Origin: Obrimoposthia wandeli
Lineage: Eukaryota
Length of the DNA stretch: 61,305 bases
Assembly: GCA_977020255.1 (NCBI GenBank)
Contig: CDROCS010002348.1
Span: 310,001 to 371,305, forward strand
Direction of reading: 5' to 3'
Shown: in pieces, positions 48,592 to 49,950 of the stretch
Layout: every line of letters begins with the position of its first letter
How positions within the stretch are numbered: the stretch's first letter is position 1
Notes under the pieces: model-generated
Database searches by the model: none
Seen by the model: the letters and a program-made list of their open reading frames with translations, nothing else
Told to the model about the DNA's origin: nothing
Position numbers and translations under genes: made by a program

Positions 48592-49950
48592 TTAGGCCAT
48601 CTTATCATTAAAATGCCTTCTCTTGAACTTTTCCTTCTCTTCCTTTAGTTCCTTCATTGAATATAGGTTTATCGCCACTTCTTCCTTGTCTGGCAACGGA
48701 ATCTTTGGTTTTCCTGTATTTGATATCTTCGCATATTCTCCTGGACTATCGTTATCATCGTCATTGTCATCTCGGTAGTTTCTTGGTTCCCGTATCATGG
48801 TTCTCGTTTGATGTTGCTCCTTCTTGAGGGCTCGCAACTCGTTCTCGTGATGATGGTGCATTAGATATTTCGCTAAAAAATGGGAAACATCCAATTATAA
48901 GTTGCCAGGTGATTCCGGTTATCCTGTATAAACTATACGTAGACAACACCTGGGCTATAATTACCTGCACAAATTTAATTATAACATAAATACCTATGAT
49001 ACCTGAAAATAACTGTCCTAAAACAAGGAATTTCCCACATTTTCCTAAGTGTCTGATGCACTGCTTCCTTGAAATGACTTGGCGACAATAACATATAAAA
49101 ATTCGCATATCTAGCTTGCGGTAATGCACGATGTACTATCTCCGTAAGTACTTTGGCCCTTTTTACTGGAAAATTATTTCGTTCCAGGCCGCTTTAAGTC
49201 TTTTTCATTGTACAAACCTGCATTCTCCATATTTTCTACCGCTTCGAATTTCATTTTTCCTTTAAGATTCGTCATTTTTATTATCTCTGGAGTCTTCGTT
49301 GGCTTTCGGTCAGGTATAGTTATCCATAGATCATTCGTCATCTGATATTCAGGTGCCATTATATTAGAGCAGCTGATTTCTTTAGTTGGAGTGTCTTTGG
49401 AAGTATCATTCTCGTGATTGGTTCAACAAAAAGTTCTTTTAAGTTATACGTTACTGCCAATTCACTCGTACATCGGTTTGTTTTTCTCAACTGTACTTCT
49501 ACTTTATTACATTTGTAAGTATACCCATGGTTTTAGCAAATACTCCTTCATCTAAGGGTAATAATGGTGCTACCATGTCTGGATTCGTAATAGCTAATGC
49601 TAACTTTGTTCTTACGATCTCTTTGTTTAACTGGCAATCTCTCTCGATCATCATCCGATATAATTGTTCCATTTGCATCAATCCTTTATGATAATAGAAA
49701 TCAATTTTATTATTAATATACGTCTGTAGCTGCATAATTTTTGGTTTCAACTTGGTTCCTGCCAATGCTATTGATTTTCTTGACAAAATTATTCCAGAAT
49801 ATTCATTTATTCCTTGTTTGACTTCGTGAGGTTGTCTCGTTCGTTCCGTCAATTGGAAACATAGATATGTGATCGCTGTGATTAGCTTTTTATTTGTAGT
49901 CTGGTTTCCACATAATCTCGCTAAAACTTGCCAACGTAAAATCTATCTAT
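48592..49950 (-). pseudogene. env-like glycoprotein related to chuvirus/Mononega-associated class III fusion proteins
   Basis: TYINNKIDFYYHK..QMEQLYRMMIERDCQLNKEIVRTKLALAITNPD; KCNKVEVQLRKTNRCTSELAVTY; CSNIMAPEY; AGLYNEKDL; hydrophobic GQLFSGIIGIYVIIKFVQVIIAQVLSTYSLYRITGITWQLIIG; then a charged tail. Confidence 0.8.

Follow-up and report, generated by a model that had tools for sequence, protein, structure and literature searches.

The window that we analysed, a stretch of 61,305 nucleotides from Obrimoposthia wandeli (contig CDROCS010002348.1, positions 310,001 to 371,305 of assembly GCA_977020255.1), contains a dead copy of a ~23-kb Ty3/gypsy-type LTR element, and segment 49801-48841 on the minus strand of this copy is identified by its motifs and profile matches as the C-terminal half of a gene for a class III fusion glycoprotein of the gB/chuvirus-G type. 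In natural copies of the family gag, env and pol lie in one frame. The explanation that best accounts for our observations, to which we assign a probability of roughly 70%, is that this family is an enveloped retroelement of the Burro kind whose Env would be cut out of the middle of a polyprotein, and that the window holds the broken C-terminal half of its env. The original prediction, made from the window alone, had recognised a chuvirus-like class III glycoprotein in a Gypsy element upstream of pol. Absent from it were two points, namely that env is carried in frame inside a gag-pol polyprotein rather than as a separate ORF, and that the element is a 23-kb giant with predicted host-modulating cargo.

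A three-frame translation of the minus strand recovers all of the env motifs that had been named (RDCQL, KCNKVEV, RCTSELAVTY, CS and GLY), with the Cys pattern and the two hydrophobic stretches at the C-terminus, in the expected order but distributed across three frames. The Pfam profile Monjiviricetes_fusion (PF24664) matches two fragments of the window independently, at 49502-49942 (E 4e-12) and at 48770-49135 (E 1.5e-7), and the combined motif and profile signal is well above chance. The glycoprotein had been placed at 48592..49950, and this interval holds for its central part, 49801-48841, while 49950-49802 is a pre-env spacer and 48840-48592 links env to the first protease. Compared with a natural copy, the window lacks 1,080 bp, an in-frame deletion with its junction at 49802/49801 that took out the signal peptide and the N-terminal half of env, which explains why neither had been recognisable in the window. 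Splicing was ruled out as the source of this gap by a junction that has no GT..AG ends. Among the 40 DNA matches scored (out of 5,606 candidates), the junction is spanned only by the window and by two duplicates on contig C1501, with the remaining 37 beginning at or past it. Independent spread of the deleted form is unsupported, as both C1501 carriers have flanking DNA in common and so resemble segmental duplicates or haplotypes. These carriers, at C1501:124207-133724 and 140033-149451, are inverted duplicates of window 45227-54669 that are 93-99% identical and have common flanks, and one of them extends past the integrase to the end of the frame. There are six frameshifting indels in the env remnant, of which only a 10-bp indel is common to both duplicates. 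The other five, which include single-base changes, could therefore be mutations private to this copy or errors of the assembly.

The features of the window copy are collected in Table 1. This copy stops at 45227, and the integrase, the phosphatase, the RING ORFs and the 3' LTR are absent from it. Long inverted repeats (42768-43449 and 44637-45227, 96-98%) with short tandem units adjoin the cut-off point and are possibly a foldback-type element. Elsewhere in the window, 60527-61290 on the plus strand holds another 5'-leader remnant from this family, oriented opposite to the first, and 24800-26600 is an 11/22-bp satellite with a GC skew near 1, which accounts for the long spurious ORFs found there.

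Table 1. Remnant features of the element copy in the window
Feature	Position	Strand	Basis
5' LTR, 3' end, ~80 bp left, ends ...CCCCAACA	54240..54321	-	matches LTR ends of natural copies
Primer-binding site, 19 nt complementary to 3' end of host tRNA-Met(CAT)	54213..54231	-	
Tandem repeats in 5' leader	53610..54126	-	sequence; several offset matches to copies
gag remnant with CCHC knuckle region ~51942-51900	51681..53152	-	tblastn of C1330 frame; zf-CCHC in C1330; Ty3_capsid match in relative P0007
gag-env spacer, conserved in relatives	49802..51648	-	comparison with relatives and copies
Junction of 1,080-bp deletion (env signal peptide and N-half lost)	49801..49802	-	copy comparison; common to two C1501 duplicates
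env C-terminal half: central helix, Cys-rich crown, C-terminal arm; frameshifted	48841..49801	-	Pfam PF24664; natural-copy fold
Transmembrane segment and second, weaker hydrophobic stretch	48869..49036	-	
Aspartic protease 1 (VDTGS)	48188..48490	-	Pfam gag-asp_proteas E 7.6e-7
BIR (inhibitor-of-apoptosis) domain remnant	47726..47920	-	Pfam BIR E 2.3e-12 in natural copy
Junction of second deletion, ~340 bp, IAP-type RING lost	47276..47286	-	copy comparison
Aspartic protease 2 (IDTGA)	46901..47182	-	Pfam E 1.7e-9
Reverse transcriptase remnant (YIDD), Ty3/gypsy type	45768..46398	-	
RNase H; copy cut off at 45227	45228..45590	-	

The assembly (1.35 Gb, ~30% GC) contains many further copies of the element. 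All of those scored, 40 of 5,606 DNA candidates and 150 of 20,850 protein candidates, matched the family, and exact matches to a 21-nt primer-site pattern number 5,333 in the assembly, versus 0 for a control. The complement of the primer site matches host tRNA-Met(CAT) genes over 19 nt; 38 of the 54 tRNA-Met pattern matches lie in a tandem array with a ~284-bp period at C2252:485-11858. The assembly itself is mixed, with many bacterial-type oxidase genes and, besides several mitochondrial-like COX1 copies that are near-identical and lie in large contigs, a distinct second invertebrate COX1. The near-identical copies read best under table 9, the basis being AAA at four positions at which another COX1 of the assembly has Asn. 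Taken with the GC content and the type of element, this suggests a flatworm host, although echinoderms use the same code.

Three natural copies with long frames were examined. In the two whose ends were inspected, C2398 (23.3 kb, LTR pair 99.6% identical) and C1330 (23.7 kb, LTR pair 98.5% identical), the LTRs have TG...CA ends and there is a 4-bp TSD. C1330 has a single frame of 2,838 aa that runs from gag through env into pol, and C2398 has a single frame of 4,630 aa that comprises the spacer, env, pol and a long tail, with each copy broken elsewhere. The complete frame is found in no single copy examined and is covered by these two overlapping copies, from whose summed frames we infer a full polyprotein of ~5,400 aa. 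The order along this frame is gag, spacer, hydrophobic signal-like stretch, gB-fold ectodomain, transmembrane (TM) segment, protease 1, BIR/RING, protease 2, RT, RNase H, integrase, repeats, dual-specificity phosphatase, phosphatase-like domain and hydrophobic segments, followed by three RING-H2 ORFs. The Pfam matches in natural copies come in the order CCHC, PF24664 (E 2.3e-91), protease, BIR, C3HC4 RING, protease, RT, RNase H, integrase and DSPc. Thus, the predicted position of env before pol is borne out by a gag-env-pol order in one frame.

The pol region also settles which type of element carries env. Specifically, the best match of RT-RNase H among solved structures is Ty3 RT (E 6.5e-92), the integrase is of the H2C2 type and the order is PR-RT-RH-IN. 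Pao-type protease and gag domains and DUF5641 have no Pfam match in the natural frame, and DUF5641 is seen only in the distant protein P0032. These domain assignments indicate that the carrier is Ty3/gypsy (Metaviridae) and not BEL/Pao (Belpaoviridae), in agreement with the original prediction.

We next consider the fold of the glycoprotein. The ectodomain of the longer natural copy, modelled by AF2 with a 115-sequence alignment, has a pLDDT of 91, a pTM of 0.76 and a 48-residue central helix. Foldseek, which had been suggested as a check, returns herpesvirus gB throughout the matches listed from the PDB, a postfusion-like fold match with a best E of 1.4e-12 and a TM of ~0.4-0.47 at only 10-13% identity, and places chuvirus-like G proteins on top in BFVD (E 4e-39, TM up to 0.75). 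An Atlas call of 0.96, although with a low recognition value, agrees with a class III glycoprotein, and the cysteines are nearly invariant across the 115 env homologues. A PDB search with the single ectodomain sequence found nothing (best E 1.1), and a profile search reached gB at an E of 0.07 only. Based on the PF24664 profile and the modelled multi-domain fold, env is assigned as a class III fusogen of the gB/chuvirus-G type. Judged by hydropathy alone, the natural copy has a TM segment with a KD of 2.52 and a moderate signal-like stretch (best 15-aa KD 1.56). A match to Orthoreo_P10 (E 0.054) was under the cut-off and was not accepted.

Selection on env was analysed in 40 natural copies that were chosen by env similarity and mostly have long frames. 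Variants present in three or more copies were taken as lineage-shared, such variants not being phylogenetically independent, and singletons (mostly post-insertion drift or error) together with a codon-position test served as controls, all within coding sequence. The region past the polyprotein stop was tried as a non-coding control and rejected, as it has an omega of 0.19 and is coding, with three RING-H2 ORFs. In the two halves of env, omega is 0.72 and 0.46 for singletons and 0.17 and 0.13 for shared variants. The shared variants comprise 108 synonymous and 63 non-synonymous changes versus 95 and 213 among the singletons (Fisher p 9e-12), and there is a model-free third-position excess among env shared variants (70/120 and 49/79). 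Env is therefore under purifying selection among lineage-shared variants. The same difference between shared variants and singletons is observed for BIR-RING (p 0.03), the phosphatase (p 3e-4) and the post-integrase repeats (p 3e-11). Constraint on RT+RH+IN is much stronger than on env, with 5/107 versus 63/108 non-synonymous to synonymous shared changes (p 3e-11), and the gag-env spacer is constrained as much as env (omega 0.06), so that constraint by itself does not single out a role in entry. The N-terminal half of env is kept in all 40 sampled copies. In-frame env deletions are found in the window, in C4814 and in two of the 40 sampled copies, which are short of part of the C-terminal half or the TM segment.

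These results bear on two other accounts of why env is open. One is that env is a non-functional passenger whose reading frame persists solely because translation has to pass through it to reach pol. A place upstream of pol in the same frame would indeed select against stops whatever the function, and in-frame env deletions do occur. However, such read-through selects against stops and frameshifts and not against missense changes, yet the omega of shared variants is 0.13-0.17, and relatives whose env is 28-48% identical have kept it, while their RT has diverged in step. We regard this account as largely refuted and very improbable. The second is that env is maintained for a different job, such as direct fusion between cells or the anchoring of Gag-Pol at membranes; the element would then pass between touching cells or remain intracellular. 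This is a more serious contender, although still an unlikely one. It is favoured by the single frame, which would give Gag, Env and Pol in a 1:1:1 ratio unless there is extra regulation, and by the weaker constraint on env relative to pol. A complete gB-fold ectodomain, the near-invariant cysteines and the constraint on both halves are what would be expected of a working fusogen, and this account departs from that of an enveloped element only in how the fusogen is used. The enveloped-element reading that we prefer has counterweights of its own: the weaker constraint on env than on pol, the equally constrained spacer, the in-frame env deletions and the signal-like stretch that is only moderate.

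The relatives of env fall into two tiers, one of proteins with 30-43% identity that are mostly inside long (gypsy) polyproteins and one of stand-alone glycoproteins of ~650 aa with 22-29% identity. We computed a FastTree of the C-terminal half from 135 of the 166 matching proteins and our own copy (136 rows), omitting rows that lacked the C-terminal half and near-duplicate cluster members. In this tree the O. wandeli env lies inside a 19-row clade (SH 98) that contains all of the rows longer than 1,000 aa (14 of 136). Sixteen of the 18 relatives in the clade were scanned with Pfam, and in 13 of these the env frame also encodes protease or RT, while three showed env only. The clade of polyprotein envs is apart from the stand-alone proteins and from the Pao-type P0032. 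Distances of env and RT are correlated across 10 elements (Mantel rho 0.87, p 0.001), a value inflated by one near-identical and one distant pair. Since env nests among polyprotein-embedded envs and its divergence tracks that of RT, it appears to have been inherited with pol over a long time, and this comparison indicates an inherited feature of an old lineage rather than a fresh capture.

This also bears on the possibility that the Gypsy family captured a chuvirus glycoprotein recently, or that the glycoprotein came in as a viral insertion of its own. In structure, the best matches among viral proteins are chuvirus-like G proteins, and the stand-alone glycoproteins match at 22-29% identity, as a capture would have it. 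However, the closest relatives are the envs of gypsy polyproteins, in one clade apart from both the stand-alone proteins and P0032, and the env frame is continuous with gag and pol and has no boundaries of its own. The recent part of this explanation is refuted, and what is left of it is the least probable of the readings that we weighed. The original prediction of an independent env acquisition by a Gypsy element is thus upheld insofar as the lineage is apart from the single Pao-type row in the tree (P0032), and fails insofar as the acquisition is not new: env is old and inherited, and elements of this kind are in print (PMC6431247; PMC13524379). An ancient chu-like virus may have been the ultimate donor; the tree is unrooted and contains no named viruses.

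The remainder of the polyprotein carries cargo. Two aspartic proteases flank an IAP-like BIR-RING cassette, in which the BIR and a zf-C3HC4_3 RING are over the Pfam cut-off in a natural copy, the Cys/His zinc ligands of the BIR are present and the best PDB match is cIAP1 (E 6.9e-16). By its domain content this cassette is a predicted IAP of the cIAP/XIAP-like type. The phosphatase (Pfam DSPc, E 3.4e-40) has an intact HCx5R motif (HCQKGISRS), and its best PDB match is DUSP10/MKP5 (E 2.4e-24). The rhodanese MAPK-docking domain has no Pfam match in the phosphatase segment, so any MAPK specificity is deduced from the likeness of the catalytic domain only, and the substrate of this putative MKP-like enzyme is uncertain. 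It is followed by a second, degenerate DSPc domain. Three small tandem ORFs in the same frame (C2398:1007584-1009194, which is L026:7584-9194, plus strand) follow the polyprotein stop and precede the 3' LTR, and in each of them Pfam recognises a RING-H2 finger over its cut-off.

Three post-integrase repeats of ~110 aa (L026:2403-3455, plus strand) are under strong purifying selection (omega 0.06). Their fold from single sequence has a pLDDT of 33, and an IPT/TIG identity was not accepted for them, the Atlas lead being weak (0.89, below the reliable range) and no Pfam match being over the cut-off. The tail of the polyprotein (L026:4803-7535, plus strand) has several signal-like and TM segments and a third-position excess among shared variants; these segments are likely putative small membrane proteins. 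Repeated aspartic proteases also occur in single polyproteins of relatives, with three D[TS]G motifs in each of P0004, P0005 and P0009, and with eight D[TS]G motif matches and four Pfam protease stretches in P0016, a pattern that suggests cargo cassettes bounded by proteases. BIR, RING and DSPc were found in none of the 25 relatives scanned, many of which are partial.

A Gypsy element with a gB-like env ahead of pol is a real arrangement and already published, as far as the accessible text of two papers goes (PMC6431247; PMC13524379). The planarian element Burro/GYPSM1 has an env in frame between gag and pol that matches mononegavirus glycoproteins, with BIR, ankyrin and BCL2 as cargo (Arkhipova and Yushenova, 2019, PMC6431247, a review that covers Grohme 2018 and Jurka 2007). 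The present family is like Burro of dugesiid planarians in being a giant gypsy LTR element with thousands of copies, a ~5,000-aa polyprotein, a gag-env-pol order and BIR cargo. It differs from the published description in its length (~23 kb versus >30 kb), in its single CCHC knuckle by Pfam (two or three in Burro) and in that MATH, BCL2 and ankyrin have no Pfam match, while the proteases around BIR-RING, the MKP-like phosphatase with its degenerate second domain and the three RING-H2 ORFs are unmentioned for Burro in the part of that paper available (PMC6431247). Compared by description, the family is thus Burro-like rather than a named Burro family.

Chary and Hayashi (2026, PMC13524379) describe gB-type GAG-ENV-POL gypsy ‘ancient errantiviruses’ in Platyhelminthes, Nematoda and Bryozoa, as well as 114 arthropod gypsy elements with a chuvirus-like glycoprotein. 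Our family shares with these a Ty3/gypsy pol, a gB-type env, the gag-env-pol order and a flatworm host, and the domain I-II motifs of Smed_errantivirus_1 resemble the present env by eye. Nine flatworm elements are tabulated there, with up to 215 copies, and for eight of the nine the listing gives no tRNA primer, in contrast to the tRNA-Met primer site of the present family. The main text of that paper makes no mention of the terms accessory, phosphatase, RING finger, apoptosis, fused or in-frame. The G proteins of Chuviridae and the BEL/Pao-borne chuvirus-like env (Dezordi et al., 2020, as cited in PMC13524379) have the same Pfam profile, PF24664, and the class III fold. Unlike the present env, they are stand-alone ORFs or follow a Pao pol, have 17-27% identity to it and fall in another clade (P0032, DUF5641). 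PMC11410931 served as context only. Neither the papers cited here nor the mostly open-access literature that was searched describes cargo made up of the phosphatase, RING-H2 and duplicated proteases, part of which may already be described in Grohme 2018, in its supplements or in Repbase.

The enveloped-element reading implies a series of processing steps, which are modelled on hydropathy, domain order and the general knowledge of polyprotein viruses. The class III glycoprotein between gag and pol would likely be the entry protein of enveloped particles. Its internal signal sequence would thread the ectodomain into the ER, where signal peptidase would part Env from Gag, and one TM pass would bring the chain back to the cytosol. 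The second hydrophobic stretch would run along the membrane, as it does in gB. Element-encoded proteases would then free Pol and the cargo, the adjacent protease acting on the C-terminal side of Env. Env trimers on budding particles could carry the element from cell to cell, while the IAP-like, MKP-like and RING-H2 cargo may dampen apoptosis and JNK/p38 stress signalling in the producing cells. A bolder version of this, which we put forward tentatively and consider rather less likely than not to be correct in full, is that of a still-infectious flatworm retrovirus. This would encode a ~5,400-aa polyprotein of Gag, gB-type fusogen, Pol, IAP-like ligase and MKP-like phosphatase, with duplicated proteases that free the cassettes, and three RING-H2 E3s; it would suppress apoptosis and JNK/p38 signalling, spread between cells and, plausibly, enter stem cells.

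The value of this family lies in the evidence for selection on env and in its cargo, rather than in the presence of a gB-like env before pol. Its thousands of recent copies permit a population-level test of env function, the outcome of which is positive, and no such test is reported in the accessible text of PMC6431247 or PMC13524379. The list of cargo supports the earlier suggestion that giant elements manipulate apoptosis and ubiquitination, and adds kinase signalling to it. Finally, the family raises a question of cell biology, namely how a fusogen that has to reach the lumen would arise from the interior of a Gag-Pol polyprotein made in the cytosol.
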